Shown one piece after another: positions 3,464 through 28,425 of a stretch of DNA of 28,529 nt. Position 1 is the stretch's first letter, and the number at the start of each line of letters is the position of its first letter. Under the pieces are notes generated by a model, which saw only the letters and a list, made by a program, of their open reading frames with translations, had not been told where the DNA came from and searched no databases. The DNA is from Candidatus Aenigmatarchaeota archaeon (GTDB taxonomy: Archaea > Aenigmatarchaeota > Aenigmatarchaeia > CG10238-14 > SpSt-28): the NCBI GenBank assembly GCA_049414645.1, contig JBMSAV010000113.1:1-28529 (forward strand), given 5' to 3'. The translations under genes and the position numbers were made by a program.

Positions 3464-3491
3464 ATTTTTTTAATGATAATGTCTTTAATGC

Positions 3492-19466: not shown

Positions 19467-19601
19467 GCCGGGGTCGCCTAGCCTGGTCGATGGCGGCAGT
19501 GCCATTGTCGAAGCTTAAGTGCTGGCTAGGCACATAAGCTCAGATTAATGAAGAAACCTGCTGGGTTAGTCCCTTCGTGGGTTCAAATCCCACCCCCGGC
19601 A
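19467..19601 (+). tRNA. tRNA-Leu(TAA) with two introns: 30/31 (19500-19512, 13 nt) and 37/38 (19520-19555, 36 nt)
   Basis: Body nearly identical to tRNA-Leu(CAA). Removing both segments restores GCAGG-CT-TAA-GA-CCTGC; A73; Leu-type variable arm. Confidence 0.82.
19530..19554 (+). ncRNA. putative intron-encoded box D'/C' (K-loop) guide element targeting U34
   Basis: Guide GCACATAAGC pairs with the anticodon region. D'-like CAGA at 19541-19544 and C'-like ATGAAGA at 19548-19554. The fifth nt upstream of D' (A19536) pairs with T34. Confidence 0.5.
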
Positions 19602-19637
19602 ATTTATGAAGTATTTATAAATATTTTAAGTATTAAT

Positions 19638-19895
19638 ATGGCGGAAAGAATTCTTATTGGAAGGGTAACTCACTATTATCCAAAAATAGGAGTTGCTGTA
19701 TTTGAACTTCAACAGAGTCTTAGGAAAGGAGATAAAATTGAAATAGAAGGAAAAACAACAAAGCTCGCTCAAACAGTAACATCAATGCAATTAAACCATG
19801 TTGATATAAATGTGGCTGAAAGTGGACAATCTATTGGATTAAAAGTAGAGGGTAGGGTTAGAGAAGGAGATAAAGTTTACAAGCTTGTCGAATAG
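19638..19895 (+). CDS. translation elongation factor-like beta-barrel protein (EF-Tu domain 2-like)
   Basis: IGRVTHYYPKIGVA, GDKIEIEG, VTSMQ and GQSIGLKVEGRVREGDKVY. Start moved to ATG 19638 because the listed start lies in the tRNA. Confidence 0.85.
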   Translation: MAERILIGRVTHYYPKIGVAVFELQQSLRKGDKIEIEGKTTKLAQTVTSMQLNHVDINVAESGQSIGLKVEGRVREGDKVYKLVE

Positions 19896-20049: not shown

Positions 20050-20481
20050 ATGAGTGGGGACCTAACCGAAGTTGAGATTTGTGATTTATGTGGGAATGAA
20101 ACCGAAGATTATTCGATTGTAAATGGTTTAGTTATTTGCGAAAGTTGTATAGAAAATTCTAGTTTAGAGAATGAGGAAAAGGAGGATAGATCTTCTAAAA
20201 TATGTGCTCTTTGCGGTTGGCCGATAAATAGAGTAATAAAGAAAGGCGAAGTGAAAGAATTTATTAAAGGTATAGAGAATTGGTTAAATCAAAATGAAGG
20301 GCTTTCCATAAATATAAAGCATAAACTAAAAAAATTAGAAGGGAAAGATTTGTATTTTTGTAGGTACGATTTCTTCTATTTAGTTAAAGATATTATTGAA
20401 GCCGAAAATGAAGCATTAGCAAATAAGTTTGAAAAAGAAATAGCATCAAAATATGATTTCTATGGTGGAATAGTCAGCTAA
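20050..20481 (+). CDS. hypothetical protein with Cys-pair zinc-finger motifs
   Basis: CDLC-x15-CESC, then CALC...FCRYD; 143 aa. Confidence 0.7.
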   Translation: MSGDLTEVEICDLCGNETEDYSIVNGLVICESCIENSSLENEEKEDRSSKICALCGWPINRVIKKGEVKEFIKGIENWLNQNEGLSINIKHKLKKLEGKDLYFCRYDFFYLVKDIIEAENEALANKFEKEIASKYDFYGGIVS

Positions 20482-20593: not shown

Positions 20594-20666
20594 ATTAAAA
20601 AGATTTATTAAGAAAAAAAATCTAAATAATATTAAAAAGTAAAACTATAGTAGTGTGGTGGGGCAA

Positions 20667-20909
20667 ATGAAAAAGGAGATTGATGTCTCTAAGCATATTT
20701 TAGTACCAAAACACGAAATACTTAACGAGAAAGAGAAAGAAGAGCTAATAAAAAGATATGGTAGCATTAAAAACTTCCCAAGAATATACACTACAGACCC
20801 ACAGGTAAAACTATTAAATGCTAAGCCAGGTGATATTATAAAAATAACAAGGTATAATGAAATCACTGGTGAATATGTACATTATAGGGTTGTAGTGGAG
20901 GGAAAATAA
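20667..20909 (+). CDS. rpoH: RNA polymerase subunit H (Rpo5)
   Basis: HILVPKHEIL, PRIYTTDP, AKPGDIIKITR and YRVVV; SD GGTGGGG precedes ATG 20667. Confidence 0.97.
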   Translation: MKKEIDVSKHILVPKHEILNEKEKEELIKRYGSIKNFPRIYTTDPQVKLLNAKPGDIIKITRYNEITGEYVHYRVVVEGK

Positions 20910-22393
20910 TGGAAAATGCATTTACTATTTTGATGAAATCATATCTAAAAGAAAAAGGTCTAGTTAATTTTCAGATTGAATCGTTCAACGATTTTGTGGA
21001 AAGGAGATTGCCAAAAATTATAAAAAACATTGGGAAAATAAAACCTGAAATTCCGGAAATTGGTGAATTGGAAATAAAACTTGGAAAATTTGAGTTGGGT
21101 GAACCAAGAGTTAAGGAAGCTGACGGCTCAATAAGAAAGATTTTACCTATGGAAGCAAGAATAAGAAACTTAACTTATGCGGCTCCAATGTATGTTGAAA
21201 TGACACAAGTTTTAAACGGAATAGAAAGTAAGCCTGTTATGATTGAAATTGGGGATTTGCCAATAATGGTAAAATCTAAGTTTTGTCCTCTTTCTAGAAT
21301 GAGTGAAAAAGAACTTATAGAGGCTGGTGAAGATCCTGATGATCCTGGAGGTTATTTTATAATAAATGGAACAGAAAGGATTCTAATGCTTGTCGAAGAA
21401 ATAGCTACAGACAGAATAATAGTTGAAAAAACTAATGATGAATCTGTTCCTGAAATTGCAAGAATACATTCGGAAAAAGAAGGCTTTATTCAGAAACACC
21501 TAATAGAAAGGAAAAGAAGTGGAGAGATTTATATAACTTTTGCGAATGTTTTAAGGATACCAATAGTAATTATTCTTAAGTCTTTAGGTTTAGAAAAAGA
21601 TAAAGAAATTTTAGAGGCCATTTCTCTAGATGAAAGAATACAAGAATTATTTTTAGTTAATATATTGGAATATCCTATAAGAAATGCGGAAGAAGCTATA
21701 GAAGAATTGGGTAAACATTTGAGAATTCCACAAAAGTCTGTGAGAAAAAAACAAGCAATAAGATTGATAGATAAATATTTATTGCCACATTTAGGGCAAG
21801 AGCCAGAAAACAGATTAACAAAAGCTATGTTTTTATGTAAAGCTATAGAGAAGATTTTGAAATTGCATTTAAGAGAAATAGAAGAAGATGACGTCGATCA
21901 TTATGCAAACAAAAGAATTAAGATGAGTGGGGATTTGTTAGAGTTATTGTTAAGATCGATACTTTTAGGTAAATGGGGACTGATAGTTAGGATGAATTAC
22001 AACTATCAAAAGTTAACAAAAAGAGGCAAATTACCTCCTTTACAAGCTGTAGTTGAAAACGCTATATTAACGAATCAAATAGTATCTGCTATGGCAGTTG
22101 GCACTTGGATTGGAGGAAGAACTGGAGTTACACAAAGATTAGATAGAAGTAGTTGGAATAAAACCATTACTCATATGAGAAATGTAGTTTCTCCTCTTTC
22201 TTCGACTCAAGAACATTTCGAAGCAAGAGAATTGCATCCTACTCATTTTGGTAAGTTATGCGTAACTCAAACTCCAGAAGGAGCTAATATTGGTTTGAGA
22301 AAATATCTTGCAATTAGCGCAACGATAACAACTAAAGTTGAAAGGAAAGAAATACAACCCATATTAGACCTTATAAAAGAGGGGGGGAAATGA
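20909..22393 (+). CDS. rpoB2: RNA polymerase subunit B'' (Rpo2N)
   Basis: QIESFNDF, PMEARIRNLTY, DPGGYFIING, DHYANKR and HPTHFGKLCVTQTPEG motifs. Confidence 0.96.
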   Translation: MENAFTILMKSYLKEKGLVNFQIESFNDFVERRLPKIIKNIGKIKPEIPEIGELEIKLGKFELGEPRVKEADGSIRKILPMEARIRNLTYAAPMYVEMTQVLNGIESKPVMIEIGDLPIMVKSKFCPLSRMSEKELIEAGEDPDDPGGYFIINGTERILMLVEEIATDRIIVEKTNDESVPEIARIHSEKEGFIQKHLIERKRSGEIYITFANVLRIPIVIILKSLGLEKDKEILEAISLDERIQELFLVNILEYPIRNAEEAIEELGKHLRIPQKSVRKKQAIRLIDKYLLPHLGQEPENRLTKAMFLCKAIEKILKLHLREIEEDDVDHYANKRIKMSGDLLELLLRSILLGKWGLIVRMNYNYQKLTKRGKLPPLQAVVENAILTNQIVSAMAVGTWIGGRTGVTQRLDRSSWNKTITHMRNVVSPLSSTQEHFEARELHPTHFGKLCVTQTPEGANIGLRKYLAISATITTKVERKEIQPILDLIKEGGK

Positions 22394-25300
22394 AAGCTAG
22401 TGTATTTTTAGATGGAGAATTTATAGGAAAAGTTGAGAATCCCAAAGAATTTGTAGATAACATAAGGAAAATGAGAAGAGAGGGTAAAATACCATATTAT
22501 GTTAATGTTGCTTATCACGAACATTTAAACGAAGTTAGAATTTTAACTTCGGCTGGTAGAGTTGTAAGACCTTTAATAGTAGTTGAAAATGGTGTTCCAA
22601 AATTAACAAAAGAGATTCTAGAAAAGGTTAAGAAAGGAGAACTTACTTTTTCCGATTTAGTAAAGAATGGAATTATAGAATATTTGGATGCCGAAGAAGA
22701 AGAAAACGCATACATTGCTATAAAACCTGAAGAAGTCACAAAAGAACATACTCATTTAGAAATCGATCCCGCTGTTGTTCTAGGATTTTCTGCCCAATTC
22801 GTCCCTTATCCAGAATTTAATAGAGGAGATAGGGTAAATTATGGAGCAAAAATGGGAGATCAGTCCATTGGAATATTCGCAACAAACTTCCTTAATAGAG
22901 TAGATAGTAAATCTAGCATTTTGGTTTATCCACAAAGACCGCTTGTGCAAACTTATATTCATAAAATTCTTGACTCAACAGAAAATTATCCTAACGGTAT
23001 AAATGTAGTAATAGCTGTAGCAACATATGAAGGTTATAATATTGAAGATGCTATAGTAATTAACAAATCTTCAGTTGAAAGAGGAATGTTCTGGAGTTAT
23101 ATGTATAGAACCTACGAGACCGAAGAAAAAAGATATTTAGGTGGACAAGAAGATGTAATTGGTATACCTCAACCTGGAATAAGAGGTTATGCTGGCGAAG
23201 ATGAATACAAGCATTTACCGGAAGATGGGATAGTTAATCCAGAAACAGAAGTAAAGTCAGATGAAGTACTTATTGGAAAGACCTCACCTCTCAGATTTTT
23301 AGGTAAAGCTGATAAATTTTTAGCCGGAATGGAAAATCTAAGAGAGACTTCTGTAAGAGTAAGACATGGGGATAAAGGAATAGTTGATAGAGTTTATATA
23401 ACTCAAACTACAGATGGTACAAAACTAGTTAAAGTAGTTTTAAGAGACTTAAAAAAGCCAGAAATTGGGGATAAGTTTGCTTCTAGACATGGTCAAAAGG
23501 GAGTTGTAGGTTTACTTGTTCCGCATGAAGATATGCCTTTCACCGAAAGCGGCATAGTTCCTGATATAATTTTCAACCCCCACGGCTTACCATCAAGAAT
23601 GACTGTAGGTCAGCTACTTGAAATTTTAGCTGGTAAAGTGGCTGCAATTTATGGTAGATATATAGATGCACCTGCTTTTAATCCCACTAATGAAAAAGAG
23701 CTGAGAGAAGCTTTAAAGAGTCTTGGGTTTGAAGAAAGCGGAAAAGAAATAATGTACGACGGTAAAACGGGGAGAAAGTTTGAAGCAAAAATATTTATAG
23801 GCTGTTCATTCTATATGAAATTAGATCATTTGGTATCTAACAAACTACAGTCTAGGGCAAGAGGACCAGTAACTTTACTAACAAGACAGCCAACTGAAGG
23901 TAGAAGCAAAGAGGGTGGTTTAAGATTAGGGGAAATGGAAAAGGATTGTTTGTTAGCTCATGGCGCTGTTTTAACTCTTAAAGAAAGATTTGATTCTGAT
24001 AAAGTTATATTGCCCGTGTGTAAAAAATGCGGAATGATTGTTGTTCACGATAAGATTAAAAATGTATACTTATGCCCTATATGTAGAGATGATGCCGAAA
24101 TAGTTAATGTTGAGATGAGCCATGCATTTAAGCTAATGTTAGATGAATTGAAAAGTTTGATAATATATCCAAAGTTAGTTATAAATGATGAAGGAAAAAT
24201 TAGCAAAATTGAATTTAGCATTCTAGATCCCGAAACTATAAGGAAAATGTCTTTTGCAAAGATTAGTAAGATAGATATTTACGATGAAGAAGGTTATCCG
24301 ATAGAAGGAGGAGTTATGGATCCTAGGCTTGGGACTATAGAACCTGGAATAAGGTGTAGAGTATGTGGAGCTAATATTGGAGAATGTCCGGGTCACTTTG
24401 GTAGTTTAGAACTAGTTAAACCAGTTATTCATCCTCACTATGTTAAATTCATACATTTCTTACTAAAAGTTAGTTGTAGAAAATGTGGAAAGATTTTAAT
24501 AAAAGATGAAGATAGAAAGAAGGAGAAAATGCCTTGGAAAGAAATAGAAAGACTTTCTTTAAAGAAGTGTCCTTTTTGTAAAACTGAACAAAAAGAAATC
24601 AAACTAATTAAGCCTTATACTTTTGTAGAGGGAAATAAAGTATTAAATCCGGCAGACGTGAGAGAAAGACTTGAAAAAATTAGCAATGAGGAATTAAAGC
24701 TTCTTGGTTTAAAAATTAGACCAGAATGGCTTGTACTAACTGTTTTGCCCATACCTCCTGTAACTATTAGGCCTTCAATAACTTTAGAAACTGGAGAAAG
24801 AAGTGAAGATGATTTAACACATAAACTTGTTGAAATTGTTAGAATTAATGATAGATTTAGGGAGAATTTGGAATTAGGTGCACCTGAATTCCTTTTGAAT
24901 GATCTGTGGGAATTATTACAGTATCATGTTGCAACATATTTTGATAATGAATTGACAGGAATTCCGCCAGCAAGACATAGATCTGGTAGGGTATTGAAGA
25001 CGTTGACTCAAAGGTTAAAAACAAAAGAAGGAAGATTTAGAGGTAATTTGTTGGGCAAAAGAGTAAACTATTGTGCAAGAACCGTTATATCACCTGATCC
25101 TAAAATAGAAATTAATGAAGTAGGTGTTCCTGAAGTTATAGCTAAAGATTTAACAATTCCTGTTAGAGTTAATGAAAAAAACATAGAAGAATTAAGAAGA
25201 TTTGTATTAAATGGTCCAAACGTGTGGCCTGGGGCAAATTACGTTATTAGACCTGATGGGAGAAAGAAAAGAATTTTAGACTCTAATAAAGAAGAAATAG

Positions 25301-26676
25301 CAAAAGAGTTAAGCGTTGATTATATAGTAGAAAGGCATTTGATAGATGGAGATATAGCACTATTTAACAGACAACCAAGCTTACATAGAATGAGTATGAT
25401 GGCCCATAAAGTAAAAGTAATGCCATTCTTAACATTTAGATTAAATGTTGCAGTCTGTCCTCCTTATAATGCTGATTTTGATGGAGATGAAATGAATTTA
25501 CATATTCCACAAACAGAAGAAGCTAGAGCAGAATCTGAAATTCTATCTATTGTTGAAAAAAATATAAGAAGCCCAAGATACTCTGCACCTATAATAGGAT
25601 TAATGAGAGATGAAATAACTGGAGTATATTTATTAACAAAAGATGGAAACAAGATTAACAGAAAAGATGCCGTTAAGCTAATAAGAAGCGTTGATATTGA
25701 TGTTGAAATTCCCGATAAAGAAGAATTTACAGGTAAAGAAATCTTCAGTGTATTTTTGCCAAAAGATTTTTCAATAGAATACAGGGGGAAAACCGGTATA
25801 GTAAAAATAGAAAATGGGATTTTAACAAAAGGTGAAATAGAAAAGAATGGAATAAGCGCTGAGGGGGGCGTAATCCTCGATAAAATGGAAAAGTATTATG
25901 GAAAGAACTTTGTGAAAGATTTTATCTATAAAATAGGTTTATTGGGAATTAACTATTTAGATATGAAAGGATTCTCTCTTGGAATATCAGATTTAGATGT
26001 TGACGATAAAGTAAAAGTTGAAATATCGAATGTTATAGAGAAGACTGAGAATGACGTCAATAAACTTATTGAGAAGTTTAATAAAGGGGAATTAATTCCA
26101 ATGATAGGTAGAACTACTGAAGAAACGTTAGAAAATATGATAAAGGAAAGAGTAGCGAGATGTTTGAATGAAAGTATGGAGATATTAGAGAAAGGAATTA
26201 AAGAATCATCAGCATTAGATATGGTAAGATGTGGGGCAAGAGGAAGTCTTATTAATTTGCTGCAAATAGTTGGATTAATTGGACAAGAAATGATAATGGG
26301 TGAAAGGATAGAGAGAGGGTATTATAAAAGAACATTCCCCCACTTTAAACCAAATGACAAAAGTCTTGCTTCTAAAGGGTTTGTTTCGCATTCATTTAAA
26401 GATGGCTTAAATGTTTTTGAATTCTATTTTGATAACATGAATTCTAGAGAGAGCCTAATGGATAAGAGTTTAAAAACAAGACACTCAGGTTACATGGAGA
26501 GAAGACTTATAGGAGCTCTACAAGATTTAAAAGTTGCATATGATGGTACAGTAAGAGATGCTGCCAATAGAATAATTCAATTTGTTCCATGTGAAGATGG
26601 TTTAGATCCATCTAAAATTACAAAAGAAGGAATAAATGTAAAAGAAATAGCAAGGAGGTTATTAAATGCTTCCTAA
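22390..26676 (+). CDS. fused RNA polymerase subunits B' (Rpo2C, aa 1 to about 601) and A' (Rpo1N, about aa 602-1428)
   Basis: B' motifs [28 protein letters not shown] and FKLMLDEL run without a stop into A' motifs [36 protein letters not shown] and SGYMERRL. Confidence 0.85.
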
Positions 26677-27799
26677 AAAAATAATTGAAGAAATAGAAAA
26701 CGTCTCAAAAGAATTTAGGCTAAAAGAAGATAAAAAAGAAAAATTGATTGAAGAAGTAAGAAGGATTTACTTAAATAGTAGATTTGAACCGGGAGAAGCT
26801 ATAGGAATTCTTGCTGCTCAAAGTATTTCGGAACCTGCAACTCAACTTACAATGAGAACGTATCATCTAGCTGGAGCTGCTGGTATTAAAGTAACTTTTG
26901 GTCTACCTAGATTGGTTGAAATATTTGACGCAAAAAGAAATATAGAAACGCCGATGATGACAATATACCTGAAAAAAGAATACAATACTAAAGAAAATGC
27001 AGAAAGGCTCGCGTATAAAATAGTAGAGAGGCGTGTTTTAGATTTATCTAAATATATTTCTATAGACATAGGAGAAAAATGCATTAATATAGAACTTGAA
27101 GACAAGAGAAAAGTTGAAAAGGTAGTGAAATGCATTAAGGCATCCTTGTCAAAAAACTTTGAAGTTAAAGTAAAGGAAGATTATATTAGCATTTATCCTA
27201 AAAGTGAAAATATTCAATTTTCAGACCTACAAAAATTAAAAGAAGAAGTTGGTAATTTAGTCGTAGAAGGAATTGATGGTATAACAGCAGCAATAATAAG
27301 AAAAGAAGATGATAATTGGATTGTACAAACGGTTGGCTCTAATCTAAAGGAGATCTTAAAGTTTGATGAAGTTGATGAACATAAAACGGTTTCTAATGAT
27401 ATTTATGAAATTTATGAAATCTTTGGAATCGAAGCCGCAAGAAATGTTATAATAAAAGAAGCTTATAAAACGATGCAAGAGCAAGGATTGAATGTTGATA
27501 TAAGATACTTACTATTATTAGCAGATGTTATGACATGGAGTGGTGAGATAAGTTCTATAGGAAGATATGGTGTTGCGGGTGCAAAAGCATCTGTTCTTGC
27601 AAGAGCGGCCTTCGAAGAAACAATAAAACATTTAATTAGAGCATCCATTAGAAATGAAGAAGACGAATTTAAAGGTTTGTTCGAAAATGTAATGGTTGGT
27701 CAGCCAGCTCCTGTAGGTACTGGGATGTTCGAATTAATATTTAAGGGTGAGGAATATGAATATAGAGGAAAAAATAAAGGAAGCGATGAAAGAGAATAA
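26666..27799 (+). CDS. rpoA2: RNA polymerase subunit A'' (Rpo1C)
   Basis: [50 protein letters not shown] and [10 protein letters not shown] motifs. Confidence 0.97.
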
Positions 27800-28010
27800 A
27801 GTTATAATTGGATATAGAGAATGTTTAAAATACATAAGAAATAATAATCCCGAAGTCGTAATAATAGCTGAAAACGCGCCAGAAAAAATTAAAAAAATTA
27901 TATTTAATAGTAACGTTAAAGTTGAAATTTTTAAAGGTAGCAGTAAAGATTTAGGAACAATTTGTGGAAGACCTCATCCAATAACAACAGTAACAATAAA
28001 AGGAAGTTAA
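27756..28010 (+). CDS. rpl30e: 50S ribosomal protein eL30
   Basis: [11 protein letters not shown] and [10 protein letters not shown]; SD GGTGAGG precedes ATG 27756; conserved position. Confidence 0.9.
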
Positions 28011-28011
28011 T

Positions 28012-28425
28012 ATGACAATTGTATTTGATACAGAATCTATAAAAGCAATTAATCTTTTTGAAACAGTAAGTCAATCTTATGTAAAGGATTGTATTATAAT
28101 GGATGATAGAATATATTTTTTGGTAGAAGAGGGTAATTTGAAAAAAATTAGAGAGAACGGTCATATCATAAGGAATTTAGAAAAAATGTTTAACAAAAAA
28201 ATTTTGATTTTTGAATACAATAAAGATATTTCAACTTTCATAAAACATTCCATAAAAGGAATAAAGGAAATAAAAATAAGGAATGAGAAAGAAAGAACTA
28301 TTGTTGAAATTTCTGTAGATAGTTACTTCAAAAGTATAGTTATTGGAAAAGACGGAAAAAATATAAAAGCTTTGAGACAAATTTTGAAAAGAAACTATAA
28401 CATAGATAATTTGGTGATAAAGTAA
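28012..28425 (+). CDS. nusA: archaeal NusA (KH domains)
   Basis: VKDCII...IYFLVEEG and [11 protein letters not shown]; lies between rpl30e and rps12. Confidence 0.92.

Follow-up and report, generated by a model that had tools for sequence, protein, structure and literature searches.

The question raised by contig JBMSAV010000113.1 (assembly GCA_049414645.1) is whether an archaeon can encode B' and A', belonging to the two largest subunits of its RNA polymerase, as one polypeptide. The contig comes from Candidatus Aenigmatarchaeota archaeon, a hot-spring DPANN archaeon, and the window, meaning the whole stretch of DNA analysed (28,529 nucleotides), carries at 22390-26676 of the forward strand a single open reading frame (ORF) of 1428 stop-free codons in which B' and A' together amount to 162.1 kDa. 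We consider it very probable that this B'-A' fusion is genuine, inherited and in frame.

Examination of the encoded protein with curated NCBIfam models revealed both halves at full length. TIGR03670 (rpoB_arch) matches residues 5-600 over profile positions 1-597 of 599, with 888 bits against a cut-off of 811, and the A' models match residues 602-1426, NF006336 with 1125 bits (cut-off 819) and TIGR02390 with 1092 bits (cut-off 1042.55). The Pfam order is Rpb2 domains 4, 5, 6 and 7 on residues 5-597 and then directly Rpb1 domains 1-5 on residues 603-1404. The catalytic NADFDGD loop is intact (residues 1027-1033), the B' C-terminal zinc ribbon (CKKC...CPIC) lies at residues 544-565, with cysteines that are invariant in alignment A1, and the A' N-terminal zinc motif (CxxC...CPGH) is found at residues 656-669. 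A genome-wide profile search returned one match each for TIGR03670 and TIGR02390, both within the fused ORF, and no second copy in an assembly of 595 kb that counts 114 contigs and is 83% complete. The genes rpoH, rpoB'' and rpoA'' are all separate ORFs flanking the fused gene, and B'' has an NF007175 match of its own. The first-pass annotation of the window had read B' as continuing in frame into A' to give a 1428-amino acid polypeptide, with B split, the catalytic and zinc motifs intact and an H, B'', B'A', A'' architecture; all of this is borne out by the sequence.

Such a frame could also arise by sequencing or assembly error, if one A had been dropped from a homopolymer and two overlapping genes had been falsely joined. 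A run of five A residues is indeed present at 24195-24199, inside the linker between the two halves, and a hand check indicates that one extra A there would end the first gene at ...DEGKN* and open an out-of-frame ATG start, MMKEKISKIEF. The 1-kb stretch around the junction occurs in many hot-spring metagenome runs from different studies, and we compared contigs over 23700-24700 from three independent DNA runs not flagged as a possible source of the assembly and from one metatranscriptome. The DNA contigs X3 (2860 nt), X4 (912 nt) and X6 (2095 nt) and the RNA contig X15 (240 nt, 24093-24332) all span 24170-24210 gap-free with no indels listed, so that no extra base is seen at the junction in these Logan assembled contigs, in which rare variants would not show. 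The identical protein was also found on other contigs. Moreover, the fusion is present in each of the nine species genomes of the genus although their junction DNA differs, the A run being replaced by GGAAAGATAAGC, GGTAGAATTGCA or GGAGAAATAACA while the frame stays open throughout. Alignment to unfused relatives would place the old A' start codon at an in-frame GGA of the window and not at the out-of-frame ATGs; the ATGATG seen at the junction would be a by-product of the codons AAT GAT GAA. As far as assembled contigs can tell, an artefact is therefore virtually impossible in our judgement. Homopolymer error, recent deletion and slippage at the A run were rejected together, on the unconserved run in the genus and the agreement of the independent contigs.

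In the linker itself (Table 1), no stop, Met or Shine-Dalgarno (SD)-like motif is present at 24175-24207, in keeping with the initial description of a stop-free junction without obvious SD near nucleotide 24190, and no in-frame ATG, GTG or TTG occurs between residues 591 and 619. AlphaFold2 applied to residues 480-770 with a 35-sequence alignment (mean predicted local distance difference test score, pLDDT, 73.6) predicted a beta-hairpin at the junction with a pLDDT of about 90, made of a strand at 592-598 (IYPKLVI), a turn at 599-603 (NDEGK) and a second strand at 604-611 (ISKIEFSI). Among PDB entries, chain A of 3QQC is the best match by sequence (a single stretch over the junction, E 3.7e-89) and also by fold (template modelling score, TM, 0.65 over 253 columns). 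The model puts the join within the clamp, where it links the final beta-strand of B' to the beta-strand that opens A'. The first-pass annotation had proposed a join at the clamp base and a structure prediction of the proximity of the termini, and in the predicted hairpin the two strands are indeed neighbours.

The clamp moves as one body in RNA polymerase II (Pol II) structures. As the two termini adjoin within it, a tether should cost nothing: the fusion would swap two free ends for a turn of five residues (NDEGK) and should leave both catalysis and the movement of the clamp as they are. The structural match is itself a designed fusion. 3QQC is described as an engineered single-chain rClamp of Pyrococcus furiosus in which B 1053-1115, A' 3-318 and A'' 334-371 are connected by short linkers, and this protein was able to fold and to bind Spt4/5 (Martinez-Rucobo et al. 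2011, PMC3094117). Its B C-terminus is joined to its A' N-terminus through a junction, ...IRPKLNLSEGGKVIGSIEF..., that closely parallels the natural one, although it is an artificial fragment made for crystallography and not a natural full-length subunit. Since 3QQC folds with the same connection, such a tether evidently does not prevent the clamp from folding correctly.

Junctions read in 100 loci (L013-L112) point to the origin of the fusion from adjoining genes. In unfused relatives, B' ends in ...IYPK.V.KEE* and A' starts with M.V[DE][KR]IEF, and the two genes overlap as ATGA (e.g. GAAGAATGAAAG), abut as TAAATG or lie one to few bases apart (TAAAATG). The last B' codons K-E-E (AAGGAGGA) serve also as the SD of A' in these relatives (e.g. 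L064-L067 near position 3480), so that signals for translating the following gene constrain the C-terminal tail of B'. Fused genes have mostly lost the motif, an SD-like sequence being found in 31 of 44 unfused B' tails versus 12 of 54 fused linkers. Unfused genes mostly have a B' tail of 6 residues and an A' head of 5 (summed mode 11), and fused linkers count 10-14 residues with a mode of 12, those of the present genus having 11. The 12-residue mode corresponds to tail, former stop read as sense and head, as in LVLKED-K-MSVDR. The 11 residues of the genus would be tail plus head without the former stop codon, as expected from a frame-restoring indel in overlapping genes. The old Met is still in frame in 12/54 fused linkers (GSEEMAVKK, DENLMKV), and no foreign sequence was inserted in any of the fused linkers read among these loci. 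Since unfused genes abut or overlap, a small indel, or a change of the stop to a sense codon, would remove the stop/start boundary and suffice to merge the B' and A' genes, and the ribosome would then translate the merged gene as one 162-kDa chain. In this genus, where no internal start codon or SD-like motif is left, the fused chain would thus be the sole source of B' and A'.

A survey of the phylum with a junction-spanning query against 371 species genomes, 346 of which matched, revealed how common the arrangement is. The C-terminus of B and the N-terminus of A' stand in one uninterrupted frame, with a linker of about 10-14 residues, in 63 of the 346 matched genomes (18%) and in 9/9 of the genus; in about 44 others both genes share a frame with a stop between them, and in the remainder they lie in different frames. 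The first-pass annotation had named uniformly split genes in close relatives as evidence against a fusion; the relatives proved to be fused instead. By family, 17 of 19 genomes are fused in the own family f1 (including all nine of the genus), 1/1 in f2, 10/22 in f3, 1/3 in f4, 16/65 in f6, 11/20 in f8, 3/36 in f21 and 2/2 in f29, and one fused genome each was found in f18 and f38. Genera g14, g20, g33 and g41 contain both fused and unfused species. Additionally, fused homologues number more than 100 in a large protein database; they are proteins of metagenome-assembled genomes named as Aenigmatarchaeota by their source and annotated only as "subunit A'". They occur in two forms, of about 1428 amino acids (B'A') and about 1911 amino acids (whole B plus A'), and their junction alignment keeps IYPK and IEF with divergent residues between.

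The longer form, an unsplit B joined to A' in about 1911-1950 amino acids, is that of families f8 and f21 and of one f38 genome (L093-L099, L101, L104; e.g. G002:C1:258392-264399); in such lineages the core would need only two large chains, BA' and A''. Three genomes were irregular: G102 (C3:19643-20578), with a match in three pieces in different frames, G092 (L060), with a frameshift inside B', and G133 (L086, C1), whose junction is itself covered by a stretch of N. Assembly or masking is the likely cause, and none of the three could be assigned as fused or unfused.

A tree of B' plus A' from 99 genomes (IQ-TREE, LG+G4, quick search, unrooted; G133 and G092 left out) allowed us to count how often the state has changed. 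Seventeen changes between fused and unfused are needed, and still 17 without the junction columns, against a mean of 32.6 for shuffled labels; at least 15 of the 17 are forced by branches with a Shimodaira-Hasegawa-like approximate likelihood ratio test (SH-aLRT) support of 95 or more. Two pairs of fused genomes, G125/G126 and G100/G106, are nested with strong support in otherwise unfused genera. On the same tree, whole versus split B requires only 2 changes. An unrooted parsimony count gives no direction, gain or loss, to individual changes, and it is the nesting, together with the leftover Met codons in fused linkers, which suggests that fusion is the derived state. The idea that the fusion might be a lineage marker holds at shallow depth and fails deeper: with 9/9 of the genus and 17/19 of the family fused and 15-17 changes in the phylum, it marks the genus and most of the family, not deeper groups.

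Outside these genomes, among the best 150 matches in a representative library of 1.84 billion proteins, the junction is crossed only by the cluster of the fused protein itself and by one giant-virus-like protein. The 1911-amino acid forms have no representative of their own in that library, so that clustering may hide further fusions. The giant-virus-like protein, P0195, counts 1665 amino acids with a whole Rpb2 plus Rpb1 domains 1-2 (L113:8001-12998, L114:8001-12998), is only 36% identical to the query region and lies on metagenome contigs of 59-79 kb beside YqaJ, DOT1, GIY-YIG and DnaJ genes and many without Pfam family. These contigs look giant-virus-like, and P0195 seems to have joined the same two subunits independently, without relation to the archaeal fusion. 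Two other matches have odd architectures of the clamp-forming region, namely P0128, a B' of 1025 amino acids whose C-terminus is extended by about 430 residues, with no more than a weak HTH_23 match, and P0134, with three tandem Rpb2 domain-7 stretches in 455 amino acids.

Fusion of the two largest polymerase subunits is of a known kind. Bacterial rpoB-rpoC (beta-beta') fusions are those of Helicobacter/Wolinella and Wolbachia (Zakharova et al. 1998, 1999, as cited in PMC9696931). The analogy drawn by the first-pass annotation is apt, for homologous ends are joined: in both cases the C-terminus of the second-largest subunit is connected to the N-terminus of the largest. The pattern of fused or overlapping genes among relatives, as given in the title of the 1999 paper cited there, matches that of Aenigmatarchaeota. 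The bacterial fusions belong to another domain of life and share no common origin with the present one, which contains only the C-terminal half of a split B and only the N-terminal two-thirds of A. The archaeal protein scores 338 bits against a cut-off of 5372 for NF007172 and 331 bits against 4632 for NF011417, far below the thresholds of these bacterial fusion models, and is thus an analogue and not a member. The archaeal fusion also changes state much more readily, at least 15 times in one phylum.

Within archaea, the canonical B''/B'/A'/A'' layout is attributed to Euryarchaeota and most DPANN (bioRxiv 10.64898/2026.06.17.729505), and a B/A'/A'' layout is canonical as well. The locus has the same gene order (H, B, A', A'', L30e, NusA), the same B''/B' and A'/A'' split points and the same catalytic and zinc motifs, but the B'/A' boundary is gone, leaving three large chains (B'', B'A', A'') versus four. 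Shifting boundaries of the large subunits are also illustrated by the A'-A'' refusion in Pacearchaeota and the unsplit A of Thaumarchaeota and Bathyarchaeota, events called rare by Da Cunha et al. (2017, PMC5484517). Unlike the Pacearchaeota refusion, which rejoins parts of one ancestral subunit, the fusion described here joins two different subunits and is frequent. No description of a B-A' fusion in archaea was found in the full-text literature searched, which covers few subscription journals and so gives no proof of novelty, nor is one mentioned in the accessible parts of PMC5484517, PMC13257274 (a 2026 review of polymerase subunit evolution) or 10.64898/2026.06.17.729505 (a 2026 preprint on the Aenigmarchaeal B'').

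What becomes of the fused chain in the cell, and why it persists, can be read in several ways. Most likely, a single 162-kDa B'A' chain acts as an ordinary polymerase core and evolves near neutrality. Since the change would take little to bring about and do the structure no harm, the fusion would behave as a reversible character close to neutrality, one that Aenigmatarchaeota have gained or lost many times; some benefit on a modest scale, for example a fixed 1:1 stoichiometry or easier assembly, is possible. Four points weigh against this view. The single polypeptide would follow from the gene, the support beyond it being the RNA-library contig over the junction. The patchy distribution is the whole of the evidence for neutrality. 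Genome sampling outside the own order favoured fused genomes. Finally, a minor indel or slippage population may be compatible with the contig data, since Logan contigs drop rare variants. Recoding of this sort, by transcriptional or ribosomal slippage on the A run or by internal initiation, would give free B' and A' beside or instead of the fusion. The run of five A at the junction invites such a reading, and internal initiation is conceivable in those fused lineages which keep a Met (12/54) or an SD-like motif (12/54). The run is however only five bases long and unconserved in the genus, no start-like codon is in frame at residues 591-619, the linker is without SD-like motif and the RNA-run contig equals the DNA without gaps, and we hold recoding to be highly improbable. 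Post-translational cutting into ordinary B' and A' chains is improbable as well: the linker is short, variable among fused lineages and predicted to form a buried, ordered hairpin turn, and the protein contains no protease site or intein-like element, Pfam showing RNA polymerase domains only.

The remaining alternatives concern selection. In tiny, thermophilic, genome-reduced cells, fusion might secure equimolar synthesis and co-translational assembly of the clamp. That the whole genus and most of its family have kept the fusion, even where protein identity among members of the genus falls to 77%, speaks for such a benefit, as does the occurrence of natural bacterial fusions likewise in reduced or host-associated lineages (NCBIfam NF007172 and NF011417; PMC9696931). 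Fused and unfused species nevertheless coexist within single genera (g33, g41, g20, g14), with at least 15 state changes, and Rpo6, the omega homologue, is found in fused and unfused genomes alike; an adaptive role is accordingly conceivable but doubtful. Compensation for a lost Rpo6 was considered and rejected: PF01192 is present in 104 of 118 genomes of the order in both states, so the fusion is not making up for Rpo6 loss, the comparison being one of presence and not of the long and short forms of the protein (PMC13257274). It is also unlikely, in our estimate, that the tether is non-neutral in the sense that a covalent B'/A' interface alters clamp assembly or dynamics, affecting Spt4/5 or TFE binding or thermostability, with switching then reflecting alternating selection and not drift. 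The near-neutral single chain is retained as the preferred reading.

The features of the locus are listed in Table 1. The operon comprises rpoH, B'', B'A', A'', L30e and a gene for a NusA-like KH protein, and the TGA stop of rpoB'' overlaps the ATG of the fused gene (ATGA). Just upstream of rpoH lies an ORF of 143 amino acids without Pfam family (20050-20481, forward strand), and another ORF of the window, at 19548-19895, has a sub-threshold match to EF-Tu domain 2 only.

Table 1. Position of the fused gene, its parts and its operon neighbours in the window.
Feature	Position	Strand	Evidence and remarks
Fused B'-A' gene	22390..26676	+	1428 aa, 162.1 kDa; sole B' and A' copy found in genome
B' part, Rpb2 domains 4-7	22402..24189	+	TIGR03670 positions 1-597 of 599, 891.8 bits in genome search; zinc ribbon 24019-24084
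Junction linker	24175..24207	+	11 residues between conserved IYPK (B') and IEF (A'); former B' tail 6 aa and former A' head 5 aa
A' part, Rpb1 domains 1-5	24196..26643	+	TIGR02390 positions 3-864 of 867, 1094 bits; NADFDGD 25468-25488; zinc motifs 24355-24486
rpoH (Rpo5), first gene of RNA polymerase operon	20655..20909	+	PF01191 Rpb5_C, E 2.2e-25
rpoB'' (N-terminal half of B), separate ORF	20909..22393	+	NF007175, 539 bits vs cut-off 355; Rpb2 domains 1-3
rpoA'' (Rpo1C), separate ORF	26666..27799	+	TIGR02389, 426 bits vs cut-off 420.65; 11-nt overlap with fused gene
L30e, downstream operon gene	27747..28010	+	PF01248
NusA-like KH protein, downstream operon gene	28012..28425	+	PF13184

The fused gene has practical consequences for annotation and for the laboratory. 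Its annotation as "subunit A'" alone hides B', and one gene matches both TIGR03670 (rpoB_arch) and TIGR02390 (rpoA1), a double match that may matter for marker-gene pipelines. The fusion state is too changeable for marking deep clades. Structural and recombinant studies of archaeal polymerase could use the natural chain as a single-chain clamp that needs no engineering, and the phylum provides a well-replicated example in which overlapping stop and start codons drive reversible gene fusion. The B'-A' fusion gives the bacterial beta-beta' fusion a natural equivalent among archaea, whose enzyme resembles eukaryotic Pol II, and it shows that an archaeal lineage, too, can do without a boundary between the two largest subunits.

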